In this document: positions 17,855-50,500 of the stretch, piece by piece
How the letters are laid out: the number at the start of each line of letters is the position of its first letter
Position numbering within the stretch: position 1 is the stretch's first letter
Source: Candidatus Enterocola sp.
Lineage (GTDB): Bacteria; Bacteroidota; Bacteroidia; Bacteroidales; Paludibacteraceae
DNA length: 64,000 nucleotides
Direction: 5' to 3'
Assembly (NCBI GenBank): GCA_045634045.1
Contig: JAZQZN010000003.1
Coordinates: forward strand, 2,444 to 66,443
The notes under the pieces: model-generated
The model's input: only the letters and a program-made list of their open reading frames with translations
Databases searched by the model: none
What the model was told of the DNA's origin: nothing
Made by a program: the position numbers and the translations under genes

Positions 17855-18292
17855 TTACGCTTGTTGCATTCTTTTGCGGTATACCATAACCGCGCCGTAG
17901 GCAGCAACCATCATTAGCAAGAAGAACACAGGTGCGTCGAGGGGTTGACCAAGTTCTGGGTTTTCGCAGTTGGCATGACACTCGGCATTTTGTTTGAAAC
18001 AATCTTGCATACAGGCAGGATCGCCTGCACAGCTTGCAGCGCACTGATCCAATTCGCCTTCGCAGCAGGTTTTACAACTATTTATATCGCTTTGCCAAGA
18101 ATCTGGATTGCACGAACCATTATAGGCTCCTACGGTTGCTTGGTTTACAAAGCTAGTACCTGTGCTTATTGAATATCCTTTTTCTGCAGTAGCATTACTT
18201 ACGTATGAATTGTACGATTTACTTGGCAATCCTACAGCCATAGCGCAGGTAGCGCACATTGCCATTATTACAAATAAAATTTGTTTTTTCAT
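17855..18292 (-). CDS. small secreted Cys-rich protein with C-terminal PLDAP motif + TM helix + basic tail (module A, component 3)
   Basis: 145 aa. Signal peptide MKKQILFVIMAMCATCAMA; 10 Cys in the mature part (CKTCC core). C-terminus: QPLDAPVFFLLMMVAAYGAVMVYRKRMQQA. Paralogs at 40741-41163 and 50072-50500. Confidence 0.8.
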   Translation of the reverse strand: MKKQILFVIMAMCATCAMAVGLPSKSYNSYVSNATAEKGYSISTGTSFVNQATVGAYNGSCNPDSWQSDINSCKTCCEGELDQCAASCAGDPACMQDCFKQNAECHANCENPELGQPLDAPVFFLLMMVAAYGAVMVYRKRMQQA

Positions 18293-18298
18293 ATTTAT

Positions 18299-18315
18299 AA
18301 ATTTCTTCGAAATTT
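18299..18315 (-). promoter_or_regulatory. conserved hairpin just upstream of the small Cys-rich gene
   Basis: AAATTTC-TTC-GAAATTT, 7 nt from the ATG. The same stem occurs at 40719-40735 in the other arm, although the rest of the spacer is not conserved. Confidence 0.4.
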
Positions 18316-18390
18316 GACTAATTGGCTAATCGGTATCGGTGTTCCAAATTACGATTCACCGATTCACCGATTTATCGATTCATCTATTTA

Positions 18391-21300
18391 TTACTTTAAT
18401 ATTACTTTCTCTGTACGTGTTGTGTTATCGCCAATTACTTGTACAATATATACACCTTGCGATACGGGCAAACTAAGCGAAGCATAATTGCCTGAAACGT
18501 TGTATTGCATGGTTCTACCAGTCATATCACTCACATAAATAGTTTGCAATTCAACGCCATTTCCAAGAACATTGATTACACTACCGTCAGCCTCATCTAC
18601 GTAGATGCTAATCGAGTTGCTTTTTTCTTGTTCTTGTTCAATGTCGGTAGGAACGTCCTCGTCAGGAATAAATTCGGGTTCGGTACTTAAAACGATGTTC
18701 AAGAAATACCTGCCTTCGATATTGCCAGCAAGCAACACTTCGGTAGTATGTGCATTGCGAAGCAAGTCAATTTCCTGACCCGTATAAGAATCTACCAAAG
18801 TAGCATAGTCGATACCTTCGGCATAAACGCGTTCAAACTTAACGTTCATATCCATTTGCAAACGAATACCCAAAGGAATGGTCAACATCTGGTTACCAGC
18901 TGTATAGCGTGTATATTGCTTGTCGTTTGCCATGATGTACAACTCGGGCGAGTCGGCATTGGGCGCAAATACTTTTTCGATATCCGTAGCCGAACCATTA
19001 GTTACATCTACCTCGCTATCGTAGTGCAATGCCACGTTGCTAAATCCTTTTTGTGTATTAGCATTGTAAAGGTTAAGCGATAAGGTAGGAACGGTTGCCT
19101 CTGCGTCACGCGAGTGGGTATAACCATCGGCCAACATACCATCGGTAATAGTAAGCGATTTTTGCCCTGCACCTGGAGTAAAGATGAAACCGTGCTGAGG
19201 TCTTAGTAGAACCGCATTGGCTGTACTGGCTGTAGACATAAAGGTTGCTGCCTCGTAATTATAGAATAGTACGGTACCACCGCTTATTTTCTCTACCAAG
19301 CGAGCATCCAAGTTGCATGGATAGGTATTGTTAAGCAATACAGGAGTTCCTGCGGTTAAGTCGCTGTAAGTACGCATAGCACTTTCGTCGGCAAAACGAC
19401 CATTAAATTCGTACGATACAGGTGCGTTTGGATCAAAGTTGCCACCAAAATAGGGGTTATAATACCTAGCTGGCAATTTAAACTCGCCGTACTCGTCGGG
19501 AATATTGATGGCAAATACAGTTCCTGGTAATACACGGGTATATAAATCGGGGAAAGTATTACCCCAAGTTGCATTGCCTCCTGTAATTTCAGCTTGGTGC
19601 ATATACACTTGTGGCAAATAGTTTTTAAAGAAATGACCCGATAACAAATCGCTAGGCTCTCCATCTTCGTTAAATGGTTGAACAACACCACCCACTAATA
19701 CCCATTTGCTACGTGGAGCATCCAAGTGGGTAATGGCATTTTCGTAGTGAAGGTTGCCATTTTTGAGGTGCTCGATGCCTTTGATAGCAGCACCAGCCTC
19801 TACAATAATGGTTTTAGCAAACAAATCGCTTACAGGATTGTCCGCACCCAAACCAGCCGATACGTGTTCGTTATCTGCCATGTTGCTGCGGTTTTCTTCA
19901 AAGTTTGCAGGTATGCGTGGCCATTTTCTACCACCCGCAATTTCTACCGAACCTTTTTCTTCGATGACGGCGGTAAGGTCATTTTCTAACACGTTAACGC
20001 ACGATAAACGTTGACGTACAATTGCACGTGTTTTATCATCTTCTACTTCGTACTCCCAGTTGTTGCGGTCATCCCAGTCTTCCGAGATACCCACCCAGTA
20101 GATTTTGTCAACACCAATGCCTTCTTTCGATTGGTAAGCACCGTAGGTCCAGTCTTTGTTTGTGGTTGGACGTTGGTCTTTTAGGTAACGGTCCGAATAC
20201 CATTCGTCGTCGGTAAGGGTAATCTTCGTGATGCTAATGTCTGGTTTAACACCATAGTTGAGCGAAGTGTTTTTAATCATGAGCGATGCAGGGCCCGATG
20301 CGGTGGTAGCACACACAGCATCCGACACGTCAATAAACTTACCGTTGCTACAACCTCCGAAGTAGAATACCGATGGGTTCTTGCTATTTTTAACGTCGTA
20401 TTCGCTCCAGAAGTTGTTGGGGCAGAAGTTGTCGCCACTTACGTCTTTACCCAAGAAAGGATTGCTGCTCTTACCAGGACAGTCTAAATCGTAGCTATAG
20501 CAGTTGTTGTATTTAAACTGTACGCTATCAACGTTAATGTCTGCTGTTTCGGCAAACGACATAAAGTCGTAGGTAGATTTTGACGTAACATTATTGTTGG
20601 CAAAGTAGTACGTGTTGTAGTAGAAACCGATGTTTTTAACAGGGTTCCATTGGGTTACCAAACGCATGGCAGCTGGGTTGCGGTCGCCATCACCTGCCAA
20701 AAATTTATTGGTATTCCAGAACACGTTATTCATTACCAACATGTTTTTAACCTCTTGTATCCAAAGCAGCGTTGCGTGGTCGCCACGGAAGTTGTTTTGG
20801 ATAAACTTGATGTTTTTGCAGTACATCAACTTGAGTGAAGCACCCCATGTAATGGAGTTGGATGTGCCATTGTCAAATACTGATTCAAAATCGTTGTTTT
20901 TGAAGGTAATACCGTCGTAGCTCGAAATGTGTGCACCCGTAAAACCGTCCGAACCAATCATACAGTTCTGAATCACAATGTTGGCATTTTCTACATAGCC
21001 TTTGGTGTTCAATTCGTTCCACGAAGAACCTTGGGTGGCGTGGTCAATGTCCATTTCGATGGCGTTGTCGCCTTTGGTTTGTACACCTTCTTTGCTAGCA
21101 TCAGTGTCTGCAGGGTCAGAGAAAATAGCCAAACTGTCCAACACAATGTTTTTCGAGTTACGAATCACAATGTGGTGAATCCATGGTTTTGCTTTGCTAT
21201 CACCTGCCTTGATGGTAAGCGTGTGGGCTGCGTTGGCACCGCTACGGTTGATGTCTTGCAGCAAGTTGGAGTTATTGGGTTTTACGTTGCCAGCATATTT

Positions 21301-23514
21301 ACCAATGTTGGTAGTACCACGGTAGATGTATGCCGATTCGGTGTTCATGTCGTCGTTGTAGAACTTAACTTTCATGGTAACAGGCTGATTCAAGTTATAG
21401 CTATCGCCAACCTTGGTTACGTATTGATAATTGGCATCTGCACTGCTATACGAGTCTTTTAAACGATCGACAGCGCGTTGCAAGTTGCCGTAGGTTAGTG
21501 TACAATCGTCTTCGAAATTTTCGCCCAACGAAGCGTCAATGGTATAGGTAATGGGCGAGCCTTTTACAGGACGAGTGCTACAGTCTGCCAAACGGAAGTA
21601 GCCTGTTTCAGCACTGAGGTAAATCATGCCACCAATTTTTACGTAGGCTCTATAGCCGTAGGTCTTGCCTTTGCCAAGGATGCTGGTTTTAAGTGAGTAA
21701 CCTTCGCCACGGTATAGCTGAACGCCGCCTCCTGCCTTCAATTTTGGTGAGGATGCAGTTGGCGTACAACCTTCGGTTGATGTACCTGCGCAATACACAA
21801 AACCATATTCGACAATGGCATTACAGTAGGTTTCCGATAGGTAGCCGTACATGGTTACGGTGGCACCATCGGCATCTACAATGGCAGGGTTTGCCAATAA
21901 TACGGGGGTGGTGGTCACCACGCCGCAATCGCCCGAATATTTCACCAAGCTACCACTGTTGTCCCAATTTGTTACCTTAACACAAGTAGTAGTAGTAGTT
22001 AGCGAAAGGGTGGCAGAATAGTTCCATTGTCCATCATCGGCAGGATTGCAACGCAACACCTGAATTTTGGTGTAGTCGTTGAGGTTGAGTAGCTCGTCGA
22101 TGTAGTAAATGTTGGCATCGCTGCTACATTGAACCATGTCTTTGGTAACCGTACCGTTTTTGGTAGTGGTTAGTGTGGCTTTGAAGATGGCACCTTCTTT
22201 TGCCCATTCCGTAAAGCTGCTGAGGTCCAAATAGTAGGTACCATTTACTACGTCTTGCACATCGCCCGAGCAGTCAATAGTTTTTAAACTTGGTGTTGTG
22301 TTGCACCAGTCTTTAGACAGGTTATAGATGTAGCGTTTGCCTTTTACCAAGCCTGTGATGTCACTGGTTTTGCAACCATCACCTCCGTTGTTGAAGATAA
22401 TACTTAGGTTGTCGTAACCAGAAACTGTCCATACGGCATATTCTTCGCCGTTGTACATGCCTGTTTTTTGTTTAGTAGAACCTGCCCAGCCGCCCAATGG
22501 GTTTCTGCTGTTATCATTAGAATCCCATGCATAGCAGTGCATACCGATGTAGCTGTCAATGCCCTTGCACCAAATTTCAATGATGTCGCAATCCGTAAAA
22601 TCGGTTTCTTCGTCGTCATCGTCGTCGTCATCGCCAGAGCCGCCGCAGTCGCCTGAATGAGTTTCCCAACTACCTTCGCTATAATAGGTTGTGCCATTCC
22701 ATGTGCCATTTGAAGTAGTGCTTGGGACAAACATTGGCTTGTCTCCACATAAATCACCACGGTGAGCAGCTTGCGTATTATGAAAATTATCATAATTACC
22801 TTGTTCATCTTTAGTAAATGAGATATAGCCACTATGACCTGATGGATATTCAACTTTATAAATAGCATTATTGCCAGTCCCGCTACATAAAGTCATAGGG
22901 AGTGGACCTGCTTTAATGTCTTTAGAACCTGATCCATTTTGTTCATGCCAATATTCACCATTATATAGGTAAACATAAACGCTTGACCAATTTACGGTAT
23001 TCTTGAAGTAAATGGTAGTTGCGTTGGTATTGCATGCTGGAGTATAGTTTGCGTAATCTTGTTTTGTAAGGTTATAAACGCCATTTGATAATGTAGGGAT
23101 ATAAATATATGCAGTAGCATCATCTCTACTTATATTTATAGCTTTTGTATAATTTTTGTCACCTTGATAAACTAAACGTGTATCTAGGGATTCATTTGCT
23201 CCAGATTTACTCCATTGGTCTTTAGCGAATGCTATTTGTGTAGCATCATCCCAATAAGTAACATTATCACATTTAAAAATATTGCCACTTACTTTTGTCA
23301 TTTGCCAATCACTACGAGAATAGCTTCCATGTCCCATATATAGGTAGATGCTACTTTCAGGCCACTGTGTATTGGTATTATCAAAATAAATTGTAACAGT
23401 GGCTGCACCCCACGCACTACCGCTAACGCCTAATAGAACGCAAAGTAAGGCAAGCACTCGTAGGACTTTACTAAAAGCCCCACTCATAATTGTATTGTTA
23501 TAAAATCTTTTCAT
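18391..23514 (-). CDS. giant T9SS-secreted protein: CBM-like/FN3-like N-terminal modules, conserved beta-helix core, type-A T9SS C-terminal sorting domain (module A, component 2)
   Basis: 1707 aa. Signal peptide MKRFYNNTIMSGAFSKVLRVLALLCVLLGVSGSAWG. Parallel beta-helix-like repeats: HHIVIRNSKNIVLDSL, NIVIQNCMIGSDGFTGAHISSYDGITFKNNDFE, CKNIKFIQNNFRGDHATLLW and MNNVFWNTN. WDDRNNWEY block. C-terminal LQTIYVSDMTGRTMQYNVSGNYASLSLPVSQGVYIVQVIGDNTTRTEKVILK is a typical T9SS tail. Confidence 0.85.
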   Translation of the reverse strand: MKRFYNNTIMSGAFSKVLRVLALLCVLLGVSGSAWGAATVTIYFDNTNTQWPESSIYLYMGHGSYSRSDWQMTKVSGNIFKCDNVTYWDDATQIAFAKDQWSKSGANESLDTRLVYQGDKNYTKAINISRDDATAYIYIPTLSNGVYNLTKQDYANYTPACNTNATTIYFKNTVNWSSVYVYLYNGEYWHEQNGSGSKDIKAGPLPMTLCSGTGNNAIYKVEYPSGHSGYISFTKDEQGNYDNFHNTQAAHRGDLCGDKPMFVPSTTSNGTWNGTTYYSEGSWETHSGDCGGSGDDDDDDDEETDFTDCDIIEIWCKGIDSYIGMHCYAWDSNDNSRNPLGGWAGSTKQKTGMYNGEEYAVWTVSGYDNLSIIFNNGGDGCKTSDITGLVKGKRYIYNLSKDWCNTTPSLKTIDCSGDVQDVVNGTYYLDLSSFTEWAKEGAIFKATLTTTKNGTVTKDMVQCSSDANIYYIDELLNLNDYTKIQVLRCNPADDGQWNYSATLSLTTTTTCVKVTNWDNSGSLVKYSGDCGVVTTTPVLLANPAIVDADGATVTMYGYLSETYCNAIVEYGFVYCAGTSTEGCTPTASSPKLKAGGGVQLYRGEGYSLKTSILGKGKTYGYRAYVKIGGMIYLSAETGYFRLADCSTRPVKGSPITYTIDASLGENFEDDCTLTYGNLQRAVDRLKDSYSSADANYQYVTKVGDSYNLNQPVTMKVKFYNDDMNTESAYIYRGTTNIGKYAGNVKPNNSNLLQDINRSGANAAHTLTIKAGDSKAKPWIHHIVIRNSKNIVLDSLAIFSDPADTDASKEGVQTKGDNAIEMDIDHATQGSSWNELNTKGYVENANIVIQNCMIGSDGFTGAHISSYDGITFKNNDFESVFDNGTSNSITWGASLKLMYCKNIKFIQNNFRGDHATLLWIQEVKNMLVMNNVFWNTNKFLAGDGDRNPAAMRLVTQWNPVKNIGFYYNTYYFANNNVTSKSTYDFMSFAETADINVDSVQFKYNNCYSYDLDCPGKSSNPFLGKDVSGDNFCPNNFWSEYDVKNSKNPSVFYFGGCSNGKFIDVSDAVCATTASGPASLMIKNTSLNYGVKPDISITKITLTDDEWYSDRYLKDQRPTTNKDWTYGAYQSKEGIGVDKIYWVGISEDWDDRNNWEYEVEDDKTRAIVRQRLSCVNVLENDLTAVIEEKGSVEIAGGRKWPRIPANFEENRSNMADNEHVSAGLGADNPVSDLFAKTIIVEAGAAIKGIEHLKNGNLHYENAITHLDAPRSKWVLVGGVVQPFNEDGEPSDLLSGHFFKNYLPQVYMHQAEITGGNATWGNTFPDLYTRVLPGTVFAINIPDEYGEFKLPARYYNPYFGGNFDPNAPVSYEFNGRFADESAMRTYSDLTAGTPVLLNNTYPCNLDARLVEKISGGTVLFYNYEAATFMSTASTANAVLLRPQHGFIFTPGAGQKSLTITDGMLADGYTHSRDAEATVPTLSLNLYNANTQKGFSNVALHYDSEVDVTNGSATDIEKVFAPNADSPELYIMANDKQYTRYTAGNQMLTIPLGIRLQMDMNVKFERVYAEGIDYATLVDSYTGQEIDLLRNAHTTEVLLAGNIEGRYFLNIVLSTEPEFIPDEDVPTDIEQEQEKSNSISIYVDEADGSVINVLGNGVELQTIYVSDMTGRTMQYNVSGNYASLSLPVSQGVYIVQVIGDNTTRTEKVILK

Positions 23515-23547
23515 ATTGTGTATTTTTATTTTATTCTTACTAAGGTT

Positions 23548-26500
23548 CTATTTTTTGATAATTTCAGGATCGCAATCTTCGGTTACATCCATAAGGATAA
23601 TGTTGGCAGTAGCCTCGTTGTTGTCAACCGTACCGCACGCATTTTCGCCCGACACCTCGATGGTAGCCTTTACGTTGTATTGTTTGCTGCGCGCAGTGCC
23701 GTTGCCACCTGTGCCCCAGTCGGATGGACGAGGAATGCGGATGTTCAACATGTGTCCGCTTTCGCTAATGATGGCGCCGTCGGCATCCAACTCGTCGTGG
23801 CTAAGGGTATATTCGTAGCCTTCTGGAGCTTGTACGTTGATGTTGACTCCTTTCCATGGAGTGGTTTCTGCGTTGGCAGGCGATAGGATAAAGATGAGTG
23901 CCTGACCAGTTAGTTTGTCTAACTCTTCGGTTAGCTTAGGAATACGGTTGGTTACCCATGTGGTAATGGCACCCTTAGAGCCTTCGTGGGTGGTAGCAGC
24001 ACCGCAGTTCTCGCCAAATCCATAGTAGCCCATGGCTTTTGAACCAGTACATGAGCTGGTAGCACCACGACCAGTAGCAGTGTTGTCGTTAAATGGTAGC
24101 ATGGCCTCTTCGCGGTCAATGGCATCGTCCAATTCTTCTGCAAAGGCAGCTACTTTCTTAGAAATGTTGGCAGTGGTGAGCACGCCACCTTCGGCAGTAT
24201 AGGCCGCCCATTTACTTTTTACCGTACTCACAAAGCATGGGTCGTTTAGCAAACCACCAGTGATGCTGGTGCCGCCGCCTGTAAACCAGAATGGGGCTTT
24301 GAAATTGTCGCTATATACTCCGCTGTCTTTAATCAAAAGTCCGTCGGTGCTATGTGCGTTTTTTGCTGAAATATTGGCAGTAACGTTGTTGAAGCTTAGC
24401 TCTTGGTCCCAAAGGGGTTGTGCTTCAATTTTGTCGCCGTTGTACACAAATAGGCAGCTTGCACGGTAGGCATCCAAGTTTTTGGTATATTCGTTGATGA
24501 TGAACCAATCTGCCCAGCTGTTGTAGTCAATGAGTTGACGTACTTTTTCGTATTCTTTGTTGTAGAGCGCAGTTTCAAATTCTTCGAAACGTTCTTGAAT
24601 AATTTTATAAACACTGGTCCAGTTGCCACCTTCGTCTTCGATGTCTTCTTTTTCGGGGTATTCAATTTCGAAAAGTTGATCGACTTTGGTGTCGTAGGTG
24701 GTAATATCTTTTTTACCTGTACGGGTGGTGGCAAAGGTTTTTTGGTCGCCTTCGGTGTTTTCAACGCGGTCAACTTTGTCGGTTTTGTCGAATTTTACAA
24801 TAAAGCCGTTGTAGTCGGTAATGTTGACACGTTTTTCGTTCATCGTGATTTTGTCCATCAATACGTACACACCTTTGTATTCGTTGTTGATGATGAGCTC
24901 TACGTACATGGAGTTAACGCCCCATTTGCCAGTCATTTCTTTGTAGAGGTCAAATACCAAACGGTTACGCATCATAGAGGGGTCTGGGGTAGCTGCATAA
25001 AGCACCCAGTCTTTGTCTTTAGCACCGTCAGATAGTCCAAATAGGTTGGCTTTGCCCGTATCTACGTCGCCATCGCTGTTCTTGGTTTTTTCTTTACCTG
25101 TTACAAAGGCATACGATTTTTTCTTAAAGTTGAGCGACGACGAACCACGGTAGTTGATGCGTCCTTTGCGGTCGTATTGCAAGGTTCCATTGGGGTTATA
25201 GATGCGCACGTCAACCGAAATCTTCTTTTTCATGCCATCGATGTTGGTCGATGGGTAGTTTTGGCCCACAACTGAACATTCGTCAGGAAGCGATTTGCTA
25301 CCAGTGTTGATCGAAATAACAGGCATGTCAAAGTTGGCAAATGCGTTGATGGCAGGAGCAGTGCCTGTTGTGCCTGTCACTTGTAGGGCATTGGATGTTT
25401 GTGTTTCGTTGCTGCCTTCGTAGCTAATCAAACAGCGGTAGTAGCCCACCTTGTCGGCACGCCAGTTGTTACATGCCGCTGTTCCGTTTGTCATGCCTAC
25501 TGCTTTGTCTGCGTAGTTGGTGGTGCAATTTGCCCAGTCAGATGTGCCATTGGCAGAGAATTGCCATGTGTAGCCCTTAACGGCGGTGGCACCTGCTACG
25601 TCAACAATACCATCTTTTTGCACATACATGGGCACAAAGTCGGTGATGATGTTGGTGCAGAGTTTCAAATCGCCCAATTGAATGATTTTAACACCAGCTT
25701 CTTGCACCTCTAATGTAACTGGTTTAGAAGTTGCAGTTAATGCTGGACACACTTTGCTAGTTGCAGTTACGGTGTATTCATAATTGCGAGCCTCGCCAAT
25801 ATTTATTGTTGTTGCAGCTGTATAGTCTCCTGCTGATTTACCATCTTTTTTAATTGTATAGTTGAAATCAGGATCATAATTACTAACTGTTAATGTTGTA
25901 GGTTTGTTTTGACCTACTGGATTTGGAGAGATTGTAACCACAGGGGTTTGAGGAGCAGGATAAAGTGTTAATGATAATGTAGATGCATCAGAAGCACAAC
26001 CACCGTCTTCTATTCTTGCATAATATATTTTATTTGAACTAATACTTACAGTAGCAGAAGCAGGAGTATTACATTCTGGGTCAGAATACCACTTAACACC
26101 ATCTATTCCATTATTATAATCACTTAATGTGATGTTTGTATTTGGACAAACAACACCAGATGCTATAATGCCAGGGGCATCTGGAATCTCATCGCAAGTA
26201 GTTTTTACATCTTGCACTGCAGAGTAAGTAAATAGCTCTGAACATGTTTTGGTATTAGCAGATATGCGCACTTGATAATCAGAACCAGCCACTAAGTCTT
26301 CAATTGAACATGTTGCATTACCAGAACCCTTTAAGCTTTGATTACATTTTTTTGCATTAGCCCAATCTCCACCCTTCTCAATACACTCAACTACCATACT
26401 TTGTAAGTCGCTACCTGTAATGGTTGCTTGAACAGTAATGCCATAGCTATATGGAGTTATTTTAATACTAGATATAGTTGGAGTATAAATATTGACAGTT

Positions 26501-27681
26501 ACATATGAACTATTTGCAGAAGAGCATAAACCATCTTTTAATACAGCATAATATTGTGTTGTAGCGGAGATGCTCACGATAGTTGGGTCTGCCACTTTTG
26601 TACCATCTTTTTTATACCATTCTAATGTACCTGCACCGCTATCGGTTCTAGGGAATAGCTCATTTAAGTTAAAAGCAACATTTTTGCATGCAATTTTAGA
26701 ACTTACAGAGAAAGTAGGAGCCGCTATTGTTGGACAAGGAACTTCTACTTCCTTAGGTTCTGAAGAATAAACCCATGGACTTCCATAAATGTATGTTCTA
26801 AACTCGTATGTATTTCCTGCCTTAGGTGTAAATGTATCTGTATCTTCACCATCTACATCGGTTTGTTTTGTAACATAACCACTATTTGAATTTGGGTCAT
26901 TCTCTGCACACCATTCTTGACCTTTTATTCTCCATTGAAAACCATGATATTGTGTACCACAAGTAGTAAAGTTACCTACTAAACTGATAGTGCCATTTTG
27001 GTTTAATGTAGCAGATGTGATAGAGGTTGAAGGGGTGCAAGCTAGTTCCCATTGAGCATAAAGAGTAGCTGCCTCGTTTGCTGTATAAGAAGCACCTGAT
27101 GCATATGAAGTGCCTGTGCCGTCAGCTTTTGTATTCCAATTTTGGAAGGTGTAACCTGAACGAGTAGGTTCGGTTGTGCTCAGTGTCAAAGCTTTATCAT
27201 GATTTTTAGTTTGAGAAGAAGGAGCCTCAGAACCGCCATTTGCATTATAAGAAATAGTATATGTAGGTAAAGTTGCCTTTACATATGTTGTATTGGAACT
27301 TGTAACGTAATAGATAATTACAGTATATTTAGCAGTACTTGAAGCTAAGGTAAATTTAACGTTATCTCCTGTTACTGATGTGAAATTAGAAATCGAAGAA
27401 ACACCTGAAGAAGAACTAGTTGAAGTTTTTACCCAGTGCCAGTTGTTTCCATTTTCAACAATACGATACTCGTAGTTTCCTGCTGCAAGTTGAAAAGTTG
27501 CTGAAACAGTCCCCGAACCAGACATTGCATTTGCTGTTGTATTCCAGCTATTCATAGTGCCAGCTACATACATTGTAGCCCACACACTACTTGTTCCTAC
27601 AAGCATCATTAGGGCCATGATAAGCCACCTTGCGCTTAGGCGCGAGGTAAATTGTTTAAAATTGTTTGTAAAATTTTTCAT
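23548..27681 (-). CDS. giant secreted CotH-family (atypical kinase-like) protein with N-terminal CBM-like, Listeria-Bacteroides repeat and Cys-containing Ig-like modules (module A, component 1)
   Basis: 1377 aa. Sec signal peptide. YTISYNANGGSEAP...GYTFQNWNTKADGTGTSY...LYAQWE is a Listeria-Bacteroides (Flg_new) repeat. CotH blocks lie at ~24390-25230: RINYRGSSSLNFKKKSYAF, DKDWVLYAATPDPSMMRN, YKGVYVLMDKIT, FEIEYPE, ADWFIINEYTKNLDAYRAS, PLWDQELSF. No T9SS tail was recognised. Confidence 0.85.
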   Translation of the reverse strand: MKNFTNNFKQFTSRLSARWLIMALMMLVGTSSVWATMYVAGTMNSWNTTANAMSGSGTVSATFQLAAGNYEYRIVENGNNWHWVKTSTSSSSGVSSISNFTSVTGDNVKFTLASSTAKYTVIIYYVTSSNTTYVKATLPTYTISYNANGGSEAPSSQTKNHDKALTLSTTEPTRSGYTFQNWNTKADGTGTSYASGASYTANEAATLYAQWELACTPSTSITSATLNQNGTISLVGNFTTCGTQYHGFQWRIKGQEWCAENDPNSNSGYVTKQTDVDGEDTDTFTPKAGNTYEFRTYIYGSPWVYSSEPKEVEVPCPTIAAPTFSVSSKIACKNVAFNLNELFPRTDSGAGTLEWYKKDGTKVADPTIVSISATTQYYAVLKDGLCSSANSSYVTVNIYTPTISSIKITPYSYGITVQATITGSDLQSMVVECIEKGGDWANAKKCNQSLKGSGNATCSIEDLVAGSDYQVRISANTKTCSELFTYSAVQDVKTTCDEIPDAPGIIASGVVCPNTNITLSDYNNGIDGVKWYSDPECNTPASATVSISSNKIYYARIEDGGCASDASTLSLTLYPAPQTPVVTISPNPVGQNKPTTLTVSNYDPDFNYTIKKDGKSAGDYTAATTINIGEARNYEYTVTATSKVCPALTATSKPVTLEVQEAGVKIIQLGDLKLCTNIITDFVPMYVQKDGIVDVAGATAVKGYTWQFSANGTSDWANCTTNYADKAVGMTNGTAACNNWRADKVGYYRCLISYEGSNETQTSNALQVTGTTGTAPAINAFANFDMPVISINTGSKSLPDECSVVGQNYPSTNIDGMKKKISVDVRIYNPNGTLQYDRKGRINYRGSSSLNFKKKSYAFVTGKEKTKNSDGDVDTGKANLFGLSDGAKDKDWVLYAATPDPSMMRNRLVFDLYKEMTGKWGVNSMYVELIINNEYKGVYVLMDKITMNEKRVNITDYNGFIVKFDKTDKVDRVENTEGDQKTFATTRTGKKDITTYDTKVDQLFEIEYPEKEDIEDEGGNWTSVYKIIQERFEEFETALYNKEYEKVRQLIDYNSWADWFIINEYTKNLDAYRASCLFVYNGDKIEAQPLWDQELSFNNVTANISAKNAHSTDGLLIKDSGVYSDNFKAPFWFTGGGTSITGGLLNDPCFVSTVKSKWAAYTAEGGVLTTANISKKVAAFAEELDDAIDREEAMLPFNDNTATGRGATSSCTGSKAMGYYGFGENCGAATTHEGSKGAITTWVTNRIPKLTEELDKLTGQALIFILSPANAETTPWKGVNINVQAPEGYEYTLSHDELDADGAIISESGHMLNIRIPRPSDWGTGGNGTARSKQYNVKATIEVSGENACGTVDNNEATANIILMDVTEDCDPEIIKK

Positions 27682-27785
27682 AAATATCGATATTTTGTTT
27701 GTTTATTTTGTTCGTGTTTACACGTGTTATTTTCGTTTGGTTTCACCCTCGCTGCGCTTCGGGTGAGGGAGGGGCGCTTTCCTAT

Positions 27786-27850
27786 CCCTGCGTTGCGCTC
27801 GCAAGCTCGCTTAACACAGGGTTATTACCAAGGACAACCCCTGCGGGGTA
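27786..27850 (-). repeat. REP-like structured repeat (copy C)
   Basis: CCCTGCGTTGCG..CTTAACACAGGGTTA..ACCCCTGCGGGGTA (reverse orientation), 1 nt downstream of the PD-(D/E)XK gene stop. Confidence 0.85.
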
Positions 27851-27851
27851 A

Positions 27852-28478: not shown

Positions 28479-28538
28479 TGCGTTTGTTTTAGGTATTTAC
28501 GTCCCATCACTCCCGAAGCATAGTATCTTCTTTCCTAT

Positions 28539-28603
28539 CCCTGCGTTGTGCTCGCAAACTCGCTTAACACAGGGTTATTACTAAGGACAACCCCTGCGGG
28601 GTA
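28539..28603 (-). repeat. REP-like structured repeat (copy D)
   Basis: CCCTGCGTTGTG..CTTAACACAGGGTTA..ACCCCTGCGGGGTA, 60 nt upstream of the PD-(D/E)XK start. Confidence 0.85.
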
Positions 28604-28968
28604 AGTTCTCGCTCCTAACTCCAAAACCGTCGGTTTCATCGGTGATTTTGGGACGCTACTGCCCATAGATTAACACAGGATCTCTTAACAAGAGAGCATT
28701 GATCACATCGCACAAAGAGCTCATAATTAGACAACAAGCCCGTGAGCCTATTGTAGGCGGGGTATTGGCTTTTAATCCGCTGAAAATCAATAATTTAACC
28801 GCTCTAAAATCTGCGCATAGTTATAGTCTAATCCGCACAAAGTTACGGACTATCAGTCACTTATGCAAACTTTTATTAAGTTTTTTTATAAATTAGGGTG
28901 ATTTTTAACGTTAGATTTTTACTGCCTTATGCTGATCGCGTTGGAGTGCTGCCATTAGAGCGGTATTG

Positions 28969-29728: not shown

Positions 29729-29763
29729 TAGATTATTGATATACTAAGCAAGGTTTGTCGCAC

Positions 29764-29792: not shown

Positions 29793-29871
29793 GGTAAAAG
29801 GATTATCGCACAAAACTTGGGCACGGATGATTAGACGAATAGGATTACTTGATTTTATAATTTATTTCCGT

Positions 29872-31621: not shown

Positions 31622-31622
31622 T

Positions 31623-40644: not shown

Positions 40645-40718
40645 ATGGTTATACGGTGATGCGGTGATTTGGTGAGTTTAGCTTCAGTTCACCGAATAAC
40701 CAAATCACCAAATAACCA

Positions 40719-40735
40719 AAATTTCGAAGAAATTT
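40719..40735 (+). promoter_or_regulatory. conserved hairpin just upstream of the small Cys-rich gene
   Basis: AAATTTC-GAA-GAAATTT, 5 nt from the ATG at 40741. Counterpart of 18299-18315. Confidence 0.4.
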
Positions 40736-40740
40736 TAGAT

Positions 40741-41163
40741 ATGAAAAAACAAATTTTATTAGTGTTGATGATAATGTGCGCAACTTGCGCCATGGCAGTG
40801 AGTTTGCCCTCTAACTCATATAATAGTTATGCGGGTACGGTAGCTAGCAGCGATGGTTATACCCTTGGACGTGGAACTACATTTGTAAACCGAGCTACCG
40901 TAGGAGCTTATACTGGAGAGTGTGGTAGTTTAGAAGATGATTGGGCAGGTGATTCCGATTTGTGCGCTACAGAATGTTGTGATGTAAGCTATCCAAGTAG
41001 CGACCAAAGCGAAGCCAACTTAGCAGCTCGTCGTGCTTGCTACTTGGCATGTGGTTTGCCTTTGGGTGAAACTCCCCTCGACGCCCCTGTTTACTGCCTA
41101 ATGCTTATGGTTGCTGCCTACGGTGCGGTTGTTGTGTATCGCCGCAAAACAGCCTCTGTATAA
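40741..41163 (+). CDS. small secreted Cys-rich protein with C-terminal PLDAP + TM + basic tail (module B, component 3)
   Basis: ORF 40669..41163, trimmed to MKKQILLVLMIMCATCAMA. 140 aa. CATECC core. C-terminus: ETPLDAPVYCLMLMVAAYGAVVVYRRKTASV. Confidence 0.8.
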   Translation: MKKQILLVLMIMCATCAMAVSLPSNSYNSYAGTVASSDGYTLGRGTTFVNRATVGAYTGECGSLEDDWAGDSDLCATECCDVSYPSSDQSEANLAARRACYLACGLPLGETPLDAPVYCLMLMVAAYGAVVVYRRKTASV

Positions 41164-41194
41164 CTTTCATAATAACCATTTTTAGTGTGGTAAA

Positions 41195-41230
41195 TCAAGC
41201 CCCTGTCAGTACAAACTGACAGGGGCTTGA
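41195..41230 (+). terminator. strong hairpin terminator ending module copy B
   Basis: TCAAGCCCCTGTCAGT-ACAA-ACTGACAGGGGCTTGA (16-bp stem), followed by T-rich sequence. Confidence 0.8.
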
Positions 41231-41337
41231 TGTGTTGTTATAGTATATCCATTCGCTTAAAGGATGCATGAGGGCAGCGGAGAAGCTGATTTTATACTTT
41301 TTTTAGCAAACGTATGCAATTATCGGAAAAAAATGCG

Positions 41338-41380: not shown

Positions 41381-44300
41381 ATGAAGTCATTTCTACGCTT
41401 CTCTTCTGTTTTGTCCGCCTCGTCGGTAAAACGTTTTATCTTTTTGTTTTTCACCTTATTTGCTTTAAGCATTCCAACGTGGGGTGCAAATATTACAGCT
41501 GGCGCTAAAATTTATCTTGACATTTCTGGACATGCCAAAATGCAAGAAAGTGTAAAAGATGGCAAAAAGTTGCAAGTAATGGCAGGACATAGCACTTACT
41601 CTATTTGTTATGAAATGAAGCAAGAAGGTACTTGTTCTAACCTATATGTGGTAACCATGCCTAAATGGGACGGATGTACACAACTTGCCTTTATTACAGC
41701 AGATGCTATTTGGGGTGGAGAAGGAAATGGAAGTAGTTCCTCTCCACAAAATCGTAGTCAATGGGGATTAACAAGTTCTGGTTATGTTGGAAGTGCATCT
41801 ATTAGTACTATGGGTTCTACCGCTAAGCATCTTTATAAGACAACTGCAACAGGTTCTAACGCAACTGGAACATTAACGCGAGTAAGTGAATCCTTTTCTA
41901 CAACCTCATACAAGGTAACCACTTCTGCAACTAATGGTAGCATAACAGTTAAAAACGCTTGCGGAACAGCAATAACATCAGGGTCCTCTGTTACCTATTC
42001 AACAATCATTCAAGTTAGCACCGAAGCAGCTGCAGGTTACGAACTAGAAAGCGTAAAAATTGGTAGCACTACCTACACTGCTGATCAGTTTACACCAGGG
42101 CAAGAATATACCGTTACCGCGGCAACTACCATTTCGGCTACGTTTAAGGCAACGAGCTGTACAGAGGCTCCTACTGTAACAAATGGAACCACATCTCCAA
42201 CCTCAACAGAAACTAACATTACCGCATACGGAAAGGTAACTGCTTTGGGTACAAACTGTACCTTGTCTGAAACTGGGGTTAAATTGTATAGCGATGCCAA
42301 CTGCACAACTGAGGTGGCTACCATTAGCTCTTCGCCTACAAGTAGTTTAAATACCGAATACAGCGTAGAATTTACCGACCTATCGCCTAGTACCAAATAC
42401 TATGCTAAGGCCTATGCTATAACGACCAGTGGAATAACGGGCAATGCTAGCGATGCCATAGAAATTAGAACTGCCGACCCCTGTTTAGCGACTGGCAAAA
42501 CCATCTACCTAAAACCAAATGACAATTGGAAGCAAGCAGGCGCATACTTTGCGGCTTATTTCTTTATTGGCGATTCAAATACATGGGTAAAACTAACTCC
42601 TGTAGCAACAGATCCAACTGTTTATGAATGTATTGTGCCAGAAGGAGGATATAATACGCTTATTTTTACACGAATGAACCCTGATAAAGAAGGGCTAAAT
42701 TGGGATAATAAATGGGCGCAAACTGCCGATCTAAGTGGCAACTGTGATGCTAATTTGTTTACTATTCCAAATGGTGACTGGGAAGGTTCTGCTGATGCGG
42801 GCAACTGGACGCAATATACACCTCCTGTTTGCGACGAAACCAACCCCTGCATAGTGCCTGGTAGCACCTTTTATTTGCAACCCAACGCTAATTGGAAAGC
42901 AGATGGCGCTCGTTTTGCAGCCTATTTCTTTAATAACTGCGAAAACACCTGGGTAAGCCTAACCGATGCAAATAAAGACGGCATTTACGAGTGCACCGTG
43001 CCAGAGGGCAAATGGATGAATTTAATTTTCTGTCGCATGAATGGCACTAAAGCCGAAAATAACTGGGATAATGCATGGAACCAAACTGCAAACTTAAATG
43101 CATCGTGTGGATACGACTTGTTTGTGATGCCAGAAACTGTTTGGAACGGTGCAGACGATAGCAACTGGACTTATCAAATTCCAGATGTTCAAGGCGCTTA
43201 CATTGCGGCTACTCGAAACATCACCACGGTTTGCACCAACGACCTTTCGCGTTTTGCCTCGCTTTATGTTCACCAAACAGGCGAGGAAGATGCCGAAAAC
43301 GAGGGCTACGAGGTGGATGCATACCAATGGAAATACAGCACCAATGGTACATCGTGGAGTAACTACACTCCCGATGCCGCAACAGAATACGGCGTAAAAG
43401 GCAAAAACAACAACATTCGTACCTACCAAACGGGTTACTATCGTTGCGATATTACCTTGAGCAATGGCTCAGACACCAAGGTATTGCAATCGAACGTAAT
43501 TGAGTTAACACAGGCTGCCAATTGTGGTGCAAGTATTACCGATAAGGGAGATGATTTCCCTGTTTTCTACATTACTACTACTCAAAACTTCCCCACCTGT
43601 AGCAAAGATTACAACAGCCAATGTGGCGAAGATATGAAAGCCAAACGCACTGTTGATGTTAAGATGTATAATAAAGGTGCTTTGTGCTACGACCGCAAAG
43701 CGCGCATGAACATCAGGGGTTCGTCGAGCTTGAACTTTGATAAAAAATCGTACGCATTTGTAGGCGGTAAAGCCGATGCCAAAGTGGGCGGCGATGTTAA
43801 AACCGACAAACTTGGCTTCTTTGGACTGCCCGAACACAAAGATTGGGTGCTTTATGCGGCCTACGCCGATGCCAGCATGTTGCGTAATGTAATGGCCATG
43901 AAAGCCTACGCTACCATGACGGGTATGTGGAGTTGCCACACCCAACATGTAAAAGTGTACATGGACGGTAAATTTGCTGGGGTGTACGTATTTATGGAAA
44001 AACCTACCTACGGCAAAGGCCGTGTAATGGTAGACGAAAATAACGGTTACCTATTTGGCTTTGATAAAACATCGGTTGACGACCGTTTCGAAAGCCAAGA
44101 CAACAGCATCGATGCTAAAAAATCTACCTTCTTGAGTATGTACTCGGGTAGAAACGATATAGAAAGTTACGGTACACAATTTGACCAACGCTTTGAAATT
44201 GAATACCCCGAGCGTGAAAAAGTAGCGTTCGATGACGACGAAAACTTGGTGAACGAACAAGCTTGGACCGACAAGGTAAACAAACTAAAAGCACGTATCA

Positions 44301-47300
44301 ACGAATTTGAAGAGGCGCTATCGACAAAAGCTTACGGCCAAGTGCGTACCCTTATTGATTACCAAACATGGGCAGACTGGTTCATCCTTAACGAGTTCTG
44401 CAAAAACTTGGACGGTTTCCGTGCTTCTAACTGGTTTATTATTGAAAACGAAGGGGCAACCATCAAGGCATCGCCCATTTGGGACTTTGAACTATCGTTT
44501 GCCAACAAGGCATCTCAATCTACCATGGGCGAAAGCCCAGATGGTTGGTTGCACGAACATGAAGATATGCACACCGACGGATTCCCTATTCCATTCTGGT
44601 TCAACGGTATTGGTGCTACCAATGCCAATACAGGCGACAAAGATGGCGGTTGGACCATTAACCAAAGCGTTGACTTTGGTGGTTTGCTAAAAGACCCCTG
44701 CTTTAAGCAAATGCTAAAAGACCGTTGGGCGATTCATACCGCAGCAAATGGTGGTATTACCGAGCTAATTGAGTGGGTAACCACCGAAAGCAACATCGAT
44801 AATATGGCAGACCTCTTGGATCTTGAAGAAGAGCGTTGGCCTGCAGCAAGCCGCAGCAAAAATGCCAATGGCAAAGAAAATGGTTACGATCCACAAAGCA
44901 ATTGGGAAACCCAAGTAAGCGAGATTCAAGCCTATGTACAAGAGCGCAAAAACAAAATGGATGCTCTTATTGAAGGCCTAACCGTAGGTTACAGACAAAC
45001 CTTAGTAAAAGATGCCAAACCATCCGATTGGAAAACGCTAACACCTGCCAATGAGGATGGGGTAGATGTTTACACCTTCGACGAAGGCCGTGAAAAAATT
45101 ACTTTCGTAACCTACATGAAAGAAACCAACGATCCTGACGGAAAAGATTTGGCAGGTGGTATGCAAGCAGCCGACATGTGGAAATTCTATGCATCGACCG
45201 AAGATTTAACTGCAGAACAGTTGGATGCGTTGGATGCTTCTGTATGGAAATTGTTTGCAAAAAGCAATACTCCAGAGCTTCCTGCATTGGGTCAAGCAGA
45301 ATGTGGTTACTACTTTGTAGAAGGTGCGTTGTGTGCCACCAATATGAAATCGCAATACATCCGCATTAAGGTAACTCCAACCTGCGAACAAGGCGATTGC
45401 ACCAACAACTACTACCGTATTAAGCTAACAGATACCCAAACAGGTAATGTAATTTACACTCCTTCTATTAAAGGGGTAGATGGAACGGCAACATCTGTAA
45501 TTACCATTCCTTGCCAAGGCGAGTTTGACTGTGTGGTAGAAACCAAAAAAGGTGCCGTTTATTGGACCGAAATAGAAGGCAGTAAATATTTCCTATCTTC
45601 TGCTGAATCCAGAGGTGCAACTACCTTAAAAGTAGAGCTATTGAACTGCACTTCTACGGGTGCTACTGATGCCGTGAAGGTTAGATTTACAGAACAAACC
45701 GAGGGCGTTACCTCATACTACCAAATTGCTTTCTACTACGGTGGCGAGCTATTGGCAGGCATTAACTCGCTGGATGGCGAAACTGGTATTACCAACGGCC
45801 AAAACAAAGTATTGGAAGGTTTGCATTTCCCTGTAGGTACTACCTATGTTATTTACCGTCGCGATAACAACAAAGCATACGATGCGTTGTACAGCTGCTT
45901 GGTAGGCCAAAATTATGTAGCAGACACCTATACTGGATTGAATAGCAACCAATCGGTAACCGCCACCTTTAGCGTAAGCGAAATAGGCGAGCTAAACGTT
46001 AGCTACGAGGTTGTTACCCAAGAGCCTAATTACTGGATTTCTACCCCATTTGCGGGCCATACAGGATTTGAAGGTGGCGAACAAAACAAACAACACAAAT
46101 CGGACGGCAAAGACAATAACACCATGTTTGCCGTTGAATGCCAAGGTGTACAAGGTGGAGCGCAAGGCGACTTCTACTTGTACAAGTACATGGAAAAAAA
46201 ACCTAGCTGGAGTGGCAACTTAGCCCAAGCTGGCGTAAAAGACGGCAATAACGATAATGTAGAAGTAGCCACCAATGCCGATGAGTACGGTTTCCACGGT
46301 GGAGACGATATGCACAGCGTATGGGTACGTTGGTTGTTCGATTCGAGCCAAGGTGCATTGCACGTACACCATGTACACAACCTGCATTTGGAATGCAAAA
46401 ACTTTGATAATACCATTACCCGTGTAGCACCTACCACTAGCGATGCAGCAACAGGTATGCTTACCTTTGAGGTGGCAGACCTTACCAACGTGGCAAGCTA
46501 CCGCATTGTGGCAGATCATCCTCACGGCAATGGAGCATTTGAGGTACAACCCTGGGGCGCTGATTACCATAAAGTAGTTACCAACATCGGTAGTGCTACT
46601 TTTACCTATAACTACGCGCAAAACTGCATGACGGTAGTTTATTCGGACATTGTTTCGCTGACTATTCCTTGCCAGCAAGCAGGCGTTAGCATCAATGCCG
46701 AAGGCAAAGTAGAAGTAATAGTGGCAAACATGGGTACATTGGAAGCTATTGAGGGCTCTTACACCGTAGTGGTAACCAACCATACCACCAAGCTAACCAT
46801 GCGTGGTACTGGTGAGGACAATGTAGGCAAATTACTACCTGCTGGCGAGCAAGAAGTATTTACATCAACCGAAAAGATTACAGGTAGCTACTATATTACT
46901 GCTTCGCTTTACTACGGTACTACCTTGTTGAATACTTGCTCATTGCAAGATTTGAACTGCGAATATACCGTTATAGATACCGTAAGATACGTGGTGGATG
47001 CCAATTTGGGATTGGAATACCAAGACCCCTGCTCACTTACCTTTGGATCGCTCGAAAATGCCTTGAAACACCTAAAAGGAACACCTAAGTTTGTAAAAGG
47101 TGGTAGCTTGATTTACCCCGTGGTAATGGAGGTTGCTTACAGCAAAACCACCTACCAAGGTACACGCAAAGCAGGCGTATCGGGCGGTGGCACCGAATCG
47201 GAAAATGCAATGGCGCTGATCATCGAAAACTTTAACCAAATAGATGCTACCCATCCACTTATTATTCGTGCAGCTAATCCAAAATCTGCTCCATGGGTAC

Positions 47301-50056: not shown

Positions 50057-50071
50057 AAATACCTTACCATA

Positions 50072-50500
50072 ATGAAAAAGATTATTAGTTTTGTTCTATT
50101 GTTGCTTGGCTCGTTGAGTGTATATGCTGTATCGATGCCTTCAAAATCTTACTATCGTTTTGGTGAGATTGGAACTACCGAAGGAGTAGTTTTGTCAACA
50201 GGTGTCCAAATTGGGAACAATGCCACGGTGGGTACTTACATTTATACGCAGTGTTTGTTCCCCGGTGACGAAAACGGGAAATGTGCAGAATGTTGTAACA
50301 CGGCAGTTAATTGCGATGATGCTTATGCCGAAGGCGATGAGACCGCCATTGAAGAATGCGAAACCAACTACGGTAAATGCATTGGTTACTGCGAGGGTGG
50401 CCCTTCGTTACCTTTGGATGCATCGTTGCTGATGCTATTGGGTATGGTGGCTGCTTACGGTGTGCGCAAATACCGCATGGCGGCATCGGAGAAAGAATAA
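50072..50500 (+). CDS. small secreted Cys-rich protein with C-terminal PLDAS + TM + basic tail (module C, component 3)
   Basis: 142 aa. Signal peptide MKKIISFVLLLLGSLSVYA; 8 Cys (CAECC core). C-terminus: SLPLDASLLMLLGMVAAYGVRKYRMAASEKE. The ATG lies 15 nt after the fusion ORF stop. Confidence 0.8.
   Translation: MKKIISFVLLLLGSLSVYAVSMPSKSYYRFGEIGTTEGVVLSTGVQIGNNATVGTYIYTQCLFPGDENGKCAECCNTAVNCDDAYAEGDETAIEECETNYGKCIGYCEGGPSLPLDASLLMLLGMVAAYGVRKYRMAASEKE

Follow-up and report, generated by a model that had tools for sequence, protein, structure and literature searches.

A Paludibacteraceae gene cassette that pairs a giant predicted beta-helix protein bearing a type IX secretion tail with a small cysteine-rich membrane protein

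The DNA discussed here is a stretch of 64,000 nucleotides (nt) from a 'Candidatus Enterocola' genome (contig JAZQZN010000003.1), called the window below, half of which is filled by three diverged copies of one gene cassette. Each copy encodes a large component 1, which here carries a CotH kinase domain; a giant component 2 with a conserved core and a type A sorting tail of the T9SS (type IX secretion system); and component 3, a small, cysteine-rich membrane protein. Which of these parts are obligatory? Four hidden Markov models (HMMs), representing small protein, core, CotH region, and C-terminal sorting domain (CTD), were run on the six frames of the window and of 46 related loci, which come from metagenome-assembled gut genomes of Paludibacteraceae/'Ca. 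Enterocola.' The small-protein gene lies 3' of the core gene, on the same strand and after a gap of 8-164 nt, in 44 of 44 evaluable cases, these being the 44 of 51 core-bearing genes with at least 600 nt of downstream sequence. CotH, on the other hand, is present in only about 25 of 40 evaluable sets, as a separate upstream gene in 20 (counting locus L027, where two open reading frames [ORFs] overlap) and fused to the giant in 5; about 15 of the 40 sets with enough upstream sequence carry none. Synteny in other genomes, by which an earlier note on this DNA had proposed to check its three-part module, thus holds for the giant and the small gene and fails for CotH in more than a third of cases. 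CotH is therefore a frequent accessory rather than a defining part, and the logic put forward in that note, a kinase with its substrate or scaffold and a membrane adaptor, is not that of the system's core. The reading that we favor, tentative and just short of probable, is a composite one: the cassette would encode a T9SS-displayed, glycan-targeting surface complex, with component 1 docked through a C-terminal domain (C1-CT) and with the small protein acting in the periplasm as partner of the beta-helix.

The cassette belongs to a narrow group of gut bacteria. A scan of one genome per species (185,579 species), keyed on the exact peptides WDDRNNW and NNVFWNTN and so possibly missing farther relatives, found 41 core loci, all of them in Paludibacteraceae, 'Candidatus Enterocola,' or unclassified Bacteroidales metagenome-assembled genomes (MAGs). 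In these genomes and in 1.84 billion proteins, the core and small-protein families are confined to the Paludibacteraceae/'Ca. Enterocola' lineage. The MAGs with the cassette come from the guts of cattle, sheep, yak, horse, and other hosts. A single MAG often holds several cassette loci, which agrees with the earlier description of an amplified and diversified module. In sequence records the component-2 core homologs bear the name 'T9SS type A sorting domain-containing protein [Paludibacteraceae bacterium],' and nothing in the public annotation of the cassette goes beyond 'T9SS type A sorting domain-containing protein' and 'hypothetical protein.'

The ORF table confirms all eight ORFs listed in the earlier note. 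Set A, on the minus strand, consists of A1 (component 1, 23548-27681, 1377 amino acids [aa]), A2 (component 2, 18391-23514, 1707 aa), and A3 (component 3, 17855-18292, 145 aa). Sets B and C are on the plus strand. Set B has B1 (31792-35781, 1329 aa), B2 (35821-40644, 1607 aa), and B3 (40741-41163, 140 aa), the last starting at an internal ATG of a 164-aa ORF that opens with TTG. In set C the first two components are joined head to tail, a component-1-like half followed by a component-2-like half, in C12 (41381-50056, 2891 aa, from an internal ATG of a 2930-aa ORF), and C3 (50072-50500, 142 aa) starts 15 nt past the C12 stop codon. BLASTP bears out the triplicated gene order, since all three sets are paralogous: A1 and B1 share 45% identity over 749 aa (1e-173), A2 and B2 46% over 1387 aa (E 0), A2 and C12 42% over 1150 aa (E 0), and A1 and C12 40% over 557 aa (2e-101), and A3 shares 50% with B3 (1e-42) and 39% with C3 (3e-16). 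Sets A, B, and C are true paralogs with 35-50% aa identity, a similarity far above chance. Within sets, the genes are on the same strand and separated by 15-100 nt, and a terminator hairpin is found only 3' of each small gene. The three hairpins that had been reported exist, with stems of 13-17 bp: at 17797-17833 after set A (minus strand, 15-bp stem, then a T-run), at 41194-41231 after set B (plus strand, 17-bp stem), and at 50522-50551 after set C (plus strand, 13-bp stem, palindromic). This placement and the spacing are compatible with operons. The products A1, A2, B1, B2, C12 (2891 aa), and C3 are found verbatim in a public protein collection, all from one NCBI contig. The exact A3 and B3 sequences are absent from a collection of 15 billion proteins in which the neighboring giants of the same contig are present; the two small genes may be unannotated in the source record or called from other start codons.

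What kind of protein is the giant? Component-2 proteins begin with a Sec signal peptide, as read from the sequence, in which a basic n-region leads into a hydrophobic core and the cleavage site is of the AWG/AWA type. The type A tail that had been assigned to all three giants stands for A2 (29.9 bits; CTD at 18394-18654, minus strand) and B2 (24.9 bits; 40396-40641, plus strand), both above the TIGR04183 cutoff of 23. That of C12 (49805-50053, plus strand) falls below it at 18.3 bits, though a family-specific CTD HMM matches at 1e-34, and sequence comparison indicates that it is homologous to the tails of A2 and B2. Ahead of the tail lies the conserved core (18595-21717 on the minus strand in A2; 37141-40443 in B2 and 46841-49855 in C12, both on the plus strand). 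An alignment of 44 core homologs is dense with invariant positions. The WDDRNNW block quoted in the earlier note is unchanged in all 44 and directly follows the beta-helix, inside which D194, D201, D217, E221, D223, H263, and E278 do not vary (positions within the core; those in A2 are higher by 599). In A2 the helix covers about 20398-21270, with beta-sandwich domains after it. An AlphaFold2 model of A2 residues 600-1640 (mean pLDDT 79.3) has short regular strands at core residues ~150-440 and then mostly beta domains to ~1010. When this model was compared with the PDB by Foldseek, the GH136 lacto-N-biosidase LnbX came out on top (E = 1.6e-5), followed by phage depolymerase tailspikes, pectate lyases, GH28, GH110, RbmB, and chondroitinase B; matches in the viral library were 'pectate lyase superfamily' proteins and depolymerases. 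For Pfam Beta_helix (PF13229), the matches in C12 and homologs are weak. As modeled, the core has the fold class of a right-handed parallel beta-helix of the pectate-lyase superfamily, a kind that serves to bind and cut polysaccharides. The core of ~1,050 aa looks, on this model, enzyme-like rather than like a passive scaffold; the substrate or scaffold suggested in the earlier note does not sit well with a conserved beta-helix bearing invariant Asp, Glu, and His residues. The 7-residue spacing of D194 and D201 equals that of the GH136 acid/base and nucleophile, which in ErLnb136 are D568/D575 (PMC7335108); we treat this as a lead, not a test.

The variability of the giant is concentrated in its N-terminal modules, and its C-terminal ~1,100 aa are the most conserved part. 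CBM26, a starch-binding family, is at threshold in A2 (aa 324-386, among its variable modules) and is recorded in many component-2 homologs and in component-1 proteins that lack CotH. Flg_new, fn3, and Ig-like domains make up the remaining variable regions, B2 too having variable modules at its N terminus, and modules of about 100 aa are common to the N-terminal parts of components 1 and 2. The recurring theme suggested by these families is alpha-glucan binding. Could the giants instead be variable surface adhesins or decoys without enzymatic activity, their helix a binding scaffold as in pertactin or filamentous hemagglutinin and the small protein a generic biogenesis factor? Diverged copies would then be kept for breadth of binding or for evasion of phage and host immunity. 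Several diverged copies per genome do sit at one hypervariable site; nearly identical 5' ends and signal peptides contrast with diverged bodies, suggesting recombination or gene conversion; Ig, fn3, and CBM modules are shuffled between components; and the fold likeness to enzymes is weak. Yet it is the helix core, with its many invariant charged residues, that is most conserved, and the N-terminal modules that vary, a pattern better suited to a conserved catalytic engine with variable targeting, and the nearest structural neighbors are nearly all glycan-cleaving enzymes. We consider the adhesin explanation unlikely and keep to a glycan-targeting surface complex.

The small protein defines a family of its own, with 52 clusters among 5.8 billion proteins and 118 representatives at 50% identity among 1.84 billion; nearly all representatives are 130-160 aa long and matched end to end. 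It has no Pfam, NCBIfam, PADLOC, or PHROGs match. Its N terminus is a signal peptide with an A-x-A cleavage site, followed at residues 26-56 by a conserved segment (LPSxSY...GTTFVNxATVGAY) that is disordered in the AlphaFold model of the protein alone, as expected for a segment that becomes ordered upon binding. Then come a helical hairpin bearing the invariant cysteines CxxCC and CxxxC and, completing the C terminus, a conserved P-L-[D/G] motif, a transmembrane (TM) helix, and a basic tail. A3 displays all of these features, including the CxxCC...CxxxC hairpin, a PLDAP motif, and the conserved segment predicted to be disordered alone; B3 and C3 are likewise Cys-rich and bitopic. Given the basic tail, the topology should be N-out/C-in, tethering the domain on the periplasmic face of the inner membrane. 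The modeled protein, a single helical hairpin plus the TM helix, has no structural neighbors, no Foldseek match falling below E = 3.8.

The three-part tail of motif, TM helix, and basic cluster is at the extreme C terminus of 45 of 45 small proteins. Among the small proteins of loci L008-L046 it occurs in distinct variants (PLDAP...VAAYG...YRKR; LPLG[TS]PLLLLPF...RRKR; and, in a distant clade, LPLDGG/LPIEGG), every one of which retains a P-L/I-[D/G/E] motif at the membrane boundary. Is this tail a new sorting signal of the PEP-CTERM, LPXTG, or GlyGly-CTERM kind, cleaved by an enzyme so that the Cys-rich domain is then attached to the envelope or the giant? The layout shared by all 45, the persistence of the motif through two or three otherwise differing tails, and the rank of the tail among the most conserved parts of the small protein would suit such a signal. 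A sorting signal would, however, be expected on more than this one family, and a search of about 800 kb of related DNA found the tail on no further ORF, one of 1.84 billion representatives on no further family (E <= 1e-3), odd multi-stretch matches in these searches being low-complexity artifacts. The window contains no exosortase, rhombosortase, or sortase gene, the NCBIfam sorting-signal models give no match, and a plain membrane anchor explains the data. Of the explanations considered here, we regard a cleaved sorting signal as the least probable.

Another proposal for the small protein is that it is an inhibitor or immunity factor, blocking a beta-helix depolymerase in the periplasm of the producer and thereby sparing the cell's own glycans. 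This would account for the strict one-to-one pairing of adjacent genes that diverge together (35-50% paralog identity for both partners), for the conservation of catalytic-looking helix residues opposite a protein that faces the periplasm, and for the toxin-antitoxin or defense-like genes scattered across the loci. It sits less easily with the giant's conserved C terminus and core, which are not polymorphic as in toxin/immunity systems; no self-glycan target is known, and no inhibitor fold was recognized. A tethered inhibitor would also have to release the giant for export and so would behave in practice much like a chaperone or escort, the role that the favored reading gives to the small protein. 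We judge inhibition quite unlikely, though somewhat less so than a cleaved tail.

Component 1 was assigned to the CotH family in the earlier note, and here the assignment is secure: A1, B1, and C12 score 131.9, 124.6, and 113.4 bits against PF08757, for which the gathering score is 23.8, and the motif blocks quoted in that note are found in the family consensus. The domain covers aa 842-1199 of A1 (24085-25158, minus strand) and aa 781-1149 of B1 (34132-35238, plus strand), and the CotH region of C12 lies at 43226-45040. In A1 it is preceded by a Sec signal peptide, a sub-threshold CBM48/X25-like region (aa 36-121), Flg_new (aa 141-210), and Ig-like sequence; in B1 by a signal peptide and Ig-like modules; and in C12 by a signal peptide and fn3/Ig modules, with linker modules between it and the core. 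Directly before every CotH domain of the family is an Ig-like domain of the I-set type (region 25400-25700 in A1), whose profile has Roundabout Ig domains as its best PDB matches (alignment positions ~25-110). Is the kinase likely to be active? A phmmer alignment to Bacillus cereus CotH (5JD9) pairs KNLD/PLWDQE of A1 with QNFD/PWDYD. The two Asp residues are 23 apart in the 5JD9 chain, as are D228 and D251 of Bacillus subtilis, and 22 apart in A1, the alignment having a one-residue gap; the aligned 5JD9 segment scores weakly, so that the Asp mapping rests on motif and spacing. Sequence searches of A1 and A2 against the PDB gave nothing of use, and the CotH profile matched 5JD9 only weakly. N407, D409, and D431 are invariant in 20 CotH family members, and the B. 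subtilis kinase loses its activity when D228 or D251 is mutated (PMC7821199). Because the aligned catalytic and metal-binding Asp residues are invariant, the domain looks catalytically competent.

The sets that lack CotH keep a large upstream gene of 870-1500 aa, and what it shares with A1 and B1 is the two ends: the first ~40 residues, where the signal peptides are 75-95% identical (94% between A1 and B1), and the last ~125 residues. The latter form C1-CT, a C-terminal domain delineated by an iterated HMM, with the motifs TTPW and IPRP and two conserved Cys residues (about 23563-23943 in A1, minus strand; about 35401-35778 in B1). It is present in 32 of 32 separate component-1 genes, ends 0-6 residues from their C terminus, and in every case belongs to the gene directly upstream of the core gene. 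It occurs with or without CotH and is absent from all 5 fused giants, C12 among them. A distant clade (L003, L036-L046) has no C1-CT and carries other upstream genes, with PKD or fn3 domains. Component 1 is thus, as far as sequence can tell, better defined by its near-identical signal peptide and C1-CT than by CotH. Since C1-CT is lost in the fusions, the simplest reading is that component 1 requires it only as a polypeptide of its own, which fits a domain for docking to the giant, and the fusions themselves are Rosetta-stone evidence that components 1 and 2 act together in one place. Could component 1 itself be T9SS cargo? A1 and B1 have no match to type A (TIGR04183) or type B CTD models at E <= 0.1-1, a lack of detectable T9SS tail that had not been noted before. 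That C1-CT is a hidden T9SS signal was considered and rejected at the sequence level (hhalign probability against type A CTDs, 1.5%; no type B match). Of the earlier picture of component 1 as a secreted kinase, then, the CotH domain and the Sec signal peptide remain; without a T9SS signal an extra step is needed, and it is C1-CT that defines the component.

In the Bacillus spore coat, CotH acts on CotB and CotG. By extension, and along the lines of the earlier note, the cassette CotH could be secreted and build up a surface layer by phosphorylating the giant or the small protein, with the small protein as membrane adaptor. The domain scores far above threshold with its aligned catalytic Asp residues invariant, it is fused to the giant in 5 sets, arguing for a functional link, and Ser and Tyr abound at the mature N terminus of the small protein (LPSxSYxSY). 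The sets lacking CotH (about 15 of 40) nevertheless retain giant and small protein alike and, within the main clade, also a component 1 with C1-CT, so phosphorylation is not essential to the module. Moreover, no ATP source is known in the periplasm or at the cell surface, and the conserved core of the giant is enzyme-like, not made of Ser-rich repeats as in CotB and CotG. We therefore think a surface layer built by phosphorylation as unlikely as the adhesin explanation.

How, then, might the parts work together in the glycan-targeting complex that we favor? The giant would leave through the T9SS and become anchored at the cell surface as type A cargo, such cargo being attached to anionic lipopolysaccharide according to a published account (PMC9143113). 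There its beta-helix would cleave or grip a polysaccharide, and the CBM26- and CBM48-like modules point to alpha-glucans. Component 1 would ride on the giant or dock to it via C1-CT and contribute accessory modules, CotH for example. At the inner membrane, on its periplasmic side, the small protein would be dedicated to the beta-helix core, helping it to fold, holding it, or escorting it until export, a role drawn by analogy with that of LnbY for the GH136 enzyme LnbX. A bolder version, which we regard as rather unlikely, sees a new T9SS surface-machine route in which the giant requires a Cys-rich inner-membrane accessory factor and carries along a C1-CT protein that has no CTD, in the manner of a cellulosome, with CotH as an extracellular kinase on or alongside alpha-glucans. 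In this version the accessory factor might use its conserved cysteines as SprF and PorG do.

Several observations weigh against a glycan-targeting complex of this design. The core resembles no specific enzyme family more than weakly, the TM-scores being low (0.2-0.3), and sequence and profile searches with the core and A2 gave no PDB match and no CAZy-type Pfam match. The glycogen-binding AMPK1_CBM and pullulanase X25 matches at aa 36-121 of A1 are below the Pfam thresholds. The small protein is unrelated to LnbY, and its C-terminal helix would retain it at the inner membrane, at a distance from where the giant ends up. Co-divergence of the small protein and the giant was tried as a sign of partnership and rejected: the Spearman coefficients of the giant's segments (0.49-0.68) are all similar and highest for the nearest DNA, so that linkage explains the distance correlations and the beta-helix is not singled out. 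To our knowledge, T9SS co-export of a protein that lacks a CTD is not an established mechanism, nor do we know of an obvious ATP supply for an extracellular or periplasmic kinase.

The chromosomal setting of the cassettes is constant, the flanks of the window being core chromosome. One flank of the window holds polA, rpsB, tsf, rpsI, ispG, an MBOAT gene, and murF, and the other holds genes for acetyl-CoA hydrolase, cdaA, folP, and a GldJ-family lipoprotein (54143-55666; TIGR03524 394 bits, below the cutoff of 458), with the cassette array placed between murF and the gldJ-like region. Cassettes on related contigs adjoin the same murF or acetyl-CoA-hydrolase neighbors and differ in number and type, which argues for a hypervariable array at a fixed chromosomal site rather than a mobile element. 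Between the cassettes of related loci are genes of the HepT/MNT, zeta-toxin, DUF3791/DUF3990, SLFN/AlbA_2, and AAA families. The window also encodes a 1011-aa TPR protein (57684-60719), which has a weak PorW/SprE match and, with the GldJ-family gene, is what the window shows of candidate T9SS machinery, followed by a 559-aa protein without a family match (60723-62402). In L036 and L037, a TPR protein of similar size and then a ~575-aa protein, also without a family match, stand directly upstream of the cassette; the resemblance of the two pairs is one of size and order. That the cassettes of the distant clade lie in SusC/SusD polysaccharide utilization loci was entertained and rejected, the upstream gene of ~1000 aa being the TPR protein and the ~575-aa product having no family match.

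The DNA between the divergent sets A and B has features that the earlier note did not mention, namely, two 208-aa ORFs and an inverted repeat of ~1.1 kb. The arms of the repeat join the two sets and are 92-95% identical. The left arm (27579-28696) covers the first ~100 nt of A1, the region upstream of it, and ORF A0 (27852-28478, minus strand, 208 aa); the right arm (30776-31894) holds ORF B0 (30995-31621, plus strand, 208 aa), the region upstream of B1, and the B1 start. A0 and B0 are 85% identical and have no significant family match (PADLOC and PHROGs included), and the exact A0 sequence is not in the protein collection. By eye, both have a D...E-x-K motif (IDLRVEV...LLIENK) that resembles those of PD-(D/E)xK nucleases. 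Direct repeats of 75 nt bracket A0 (27777-27851/28530-28604) and B0 (30868-30941/31622-31695); there are four copies in the window and none in 46 related loci. If the arms recombined, the ~2.1-kb segment that they enclose could be inverted. This segment contains a GNAT acetyltransferase gene (29755-30617, plus strand, 177 aa), the start of which is overlapped by a small ORF in a toxin-antitoxin-like layout; PADLOC and PHROGs matched the GNAT product as an acetyltransferase and gave no significant match for the upstream ORF.

Conserved ends recur elsewhere in the array. The A1/A2 and B1/B2 junctions (23408-23555 versus 35780-35927) are 91% identical in DNA, whereas the gene bodies are only ~45% identical in protein, and for junctions and signal-peptide regions together (the latter being the first ~40 codons of all component-1 and component-2 genes) identity between paralogs is 91-94%, the same signal peptides recurring at 75-95% in other species. 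Such conserved ends on diverged bodies suggest gene conversion, cassette exchange at the ends, or strong selection on unusually long signal peptides. The spacers between giant and small gene are distinctive as well, often folding into a long hairpin of short tandem repeats that exists in several versions unrelated in sequence: CGGTGAT/ATCACC in the window and TTAGGAG/TTCCTAA or others elsewhere (e.g., L006, L010, L020, L022, and L029). The A2-A3 spacer (18293-18390, minus strand) is a hairpin built of repeats with a minimum free energy (MFE) of -22.1 kcal/mol, and the B2-B3 spacer (40645-40740, plus strand) forms a long hairpin of the CGGTGAT/ATCACC repeats (MFE -33 kcal/mol, z -5.7). Among spacers of at least 40 nt, 23 of 24 fold far better than shuffles (z <= -3), and no T-run follows. 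These hairpins may be mRNA processing or stability elements that set the ratio of giant to small protein, or they may be REP-like elements. Rfam has no matches in the window.

How much of this is new? T9SS cargo, the beta-helix glycanase fold, and the CotH kinase are of known kinds. What appears to be undescribed is the cassette as a whole, along with its obligate small partner and the logic of C1-CT: the literature searches turned up no paper linking CotH with T9SS or Bacteroidetes or describing the cassette, in keeping with the earlier remark that no system of this composition was known. Three of its conserved elements, the ~1,050-aa core, the small partner, and C1-CT, are without a family assignment. 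With several cassettes per genome, each of about 10-11 kb, it represents a large investment for small-genome gut Paludibacteraceae. If the proposed mechanism is true, a cargo-specific accessory factor and a piggy-back or docking route would be added to the T9SS repertoire. The cassette, in which CotH may be a separate gene, fused, or absent, would also be a tractable natural experiment on what CotH does outside spores, a question that extends to the cellulosomal CotH proteins. Finally, the core may be a sign that the gut microbiomes of herbivores and humans contain an uncharacterized class of beta-helix enzymes acting on glycans.

Which known systems does the cassette resemble? Polymorphic toxin/immunity pairs have a variable C-terminal toxin, and the giant is the opposite, with a conserved C terminus and a variable N terminus. 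Phage tailspike and capsule depolymerases, PL1, GH28, GH110, and RbmB share the fold class of the core and its bind-and-cut logic; the core differs in having no family-level sequence membership, about 500 extra beta-sandwich residues with WDDRNNW, and a T9SS cargo's route. Bacillus CotH has the same PF08757 domain with the aligned catalytic and metal-binding Asp residues conserved. CotH proteins attached to cellulosomes through dockerins are also known, and the analogy with the cassette would be that of an accessory module held on an extracellular carbohydrate-active assembly by a docking-type domain. Unlike these systems, the cassette has no spore coat and no Ser-rich substrates resembling CotB and CotG, it uses C1-CT or fusion in place of dockerin and cohesin, and its CotH is dispensable in more than a third of cassettes.

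As a giant T9SS surface protein with an adjacent, cargo-specific partner, the cassette is like SprB-SprF of Flavobacterium johnsoniae and PG1035-PorP of Porphyromonas gingivalis. Type B cargo needs adjacent PorP/SprF-like carriers, which conserved periplasmic cysteines link to the GldK/PorK track, as described in two accounts (PMC9143113, PMC12635249). Those systems have a type B CTD and an outer-membrane beta-barrel partner, whereas the cassette has a type A CTD and a single-helix partner of ~140 aa, to which no PorP/SprF model gave a match. Neither the SprF/PorP partners nor LnbY is homologous to the cassette small protein. The GH136 pair LnbX/LnbY (Bifidobacterium longum, Roseburia, and Eubacterium ramulus) also differs in its details. 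LnbX has no sequence similarity to the core and only a weak fold match (E 1.6e-5, TM 0.20-0.30); LnbY is an 8-helix domain of about 220 aa, and the cassette partner, of 140 aa, is a Cys-rich helical hairpin anchored by a TM helix, without detectable relatives and not LnbY-like in its model; the fused element is the chaperone-like domain in GH136 and component 1 in the cassette; and GH136 proteins are not T9SS cargo. The architecture would be analogous. The beta-helix LnbX is active only with the co-expressed, adjacent LnbY/GH136I, to which it is fused in some species (PMC7335108). Both systems would combine a beta-helix glycan-active protein with an adjacent small partner, in both the parts are encoded separately or as a fusion, depending on the genome, and both would be associated with the membrane or surface in gut bacteria.

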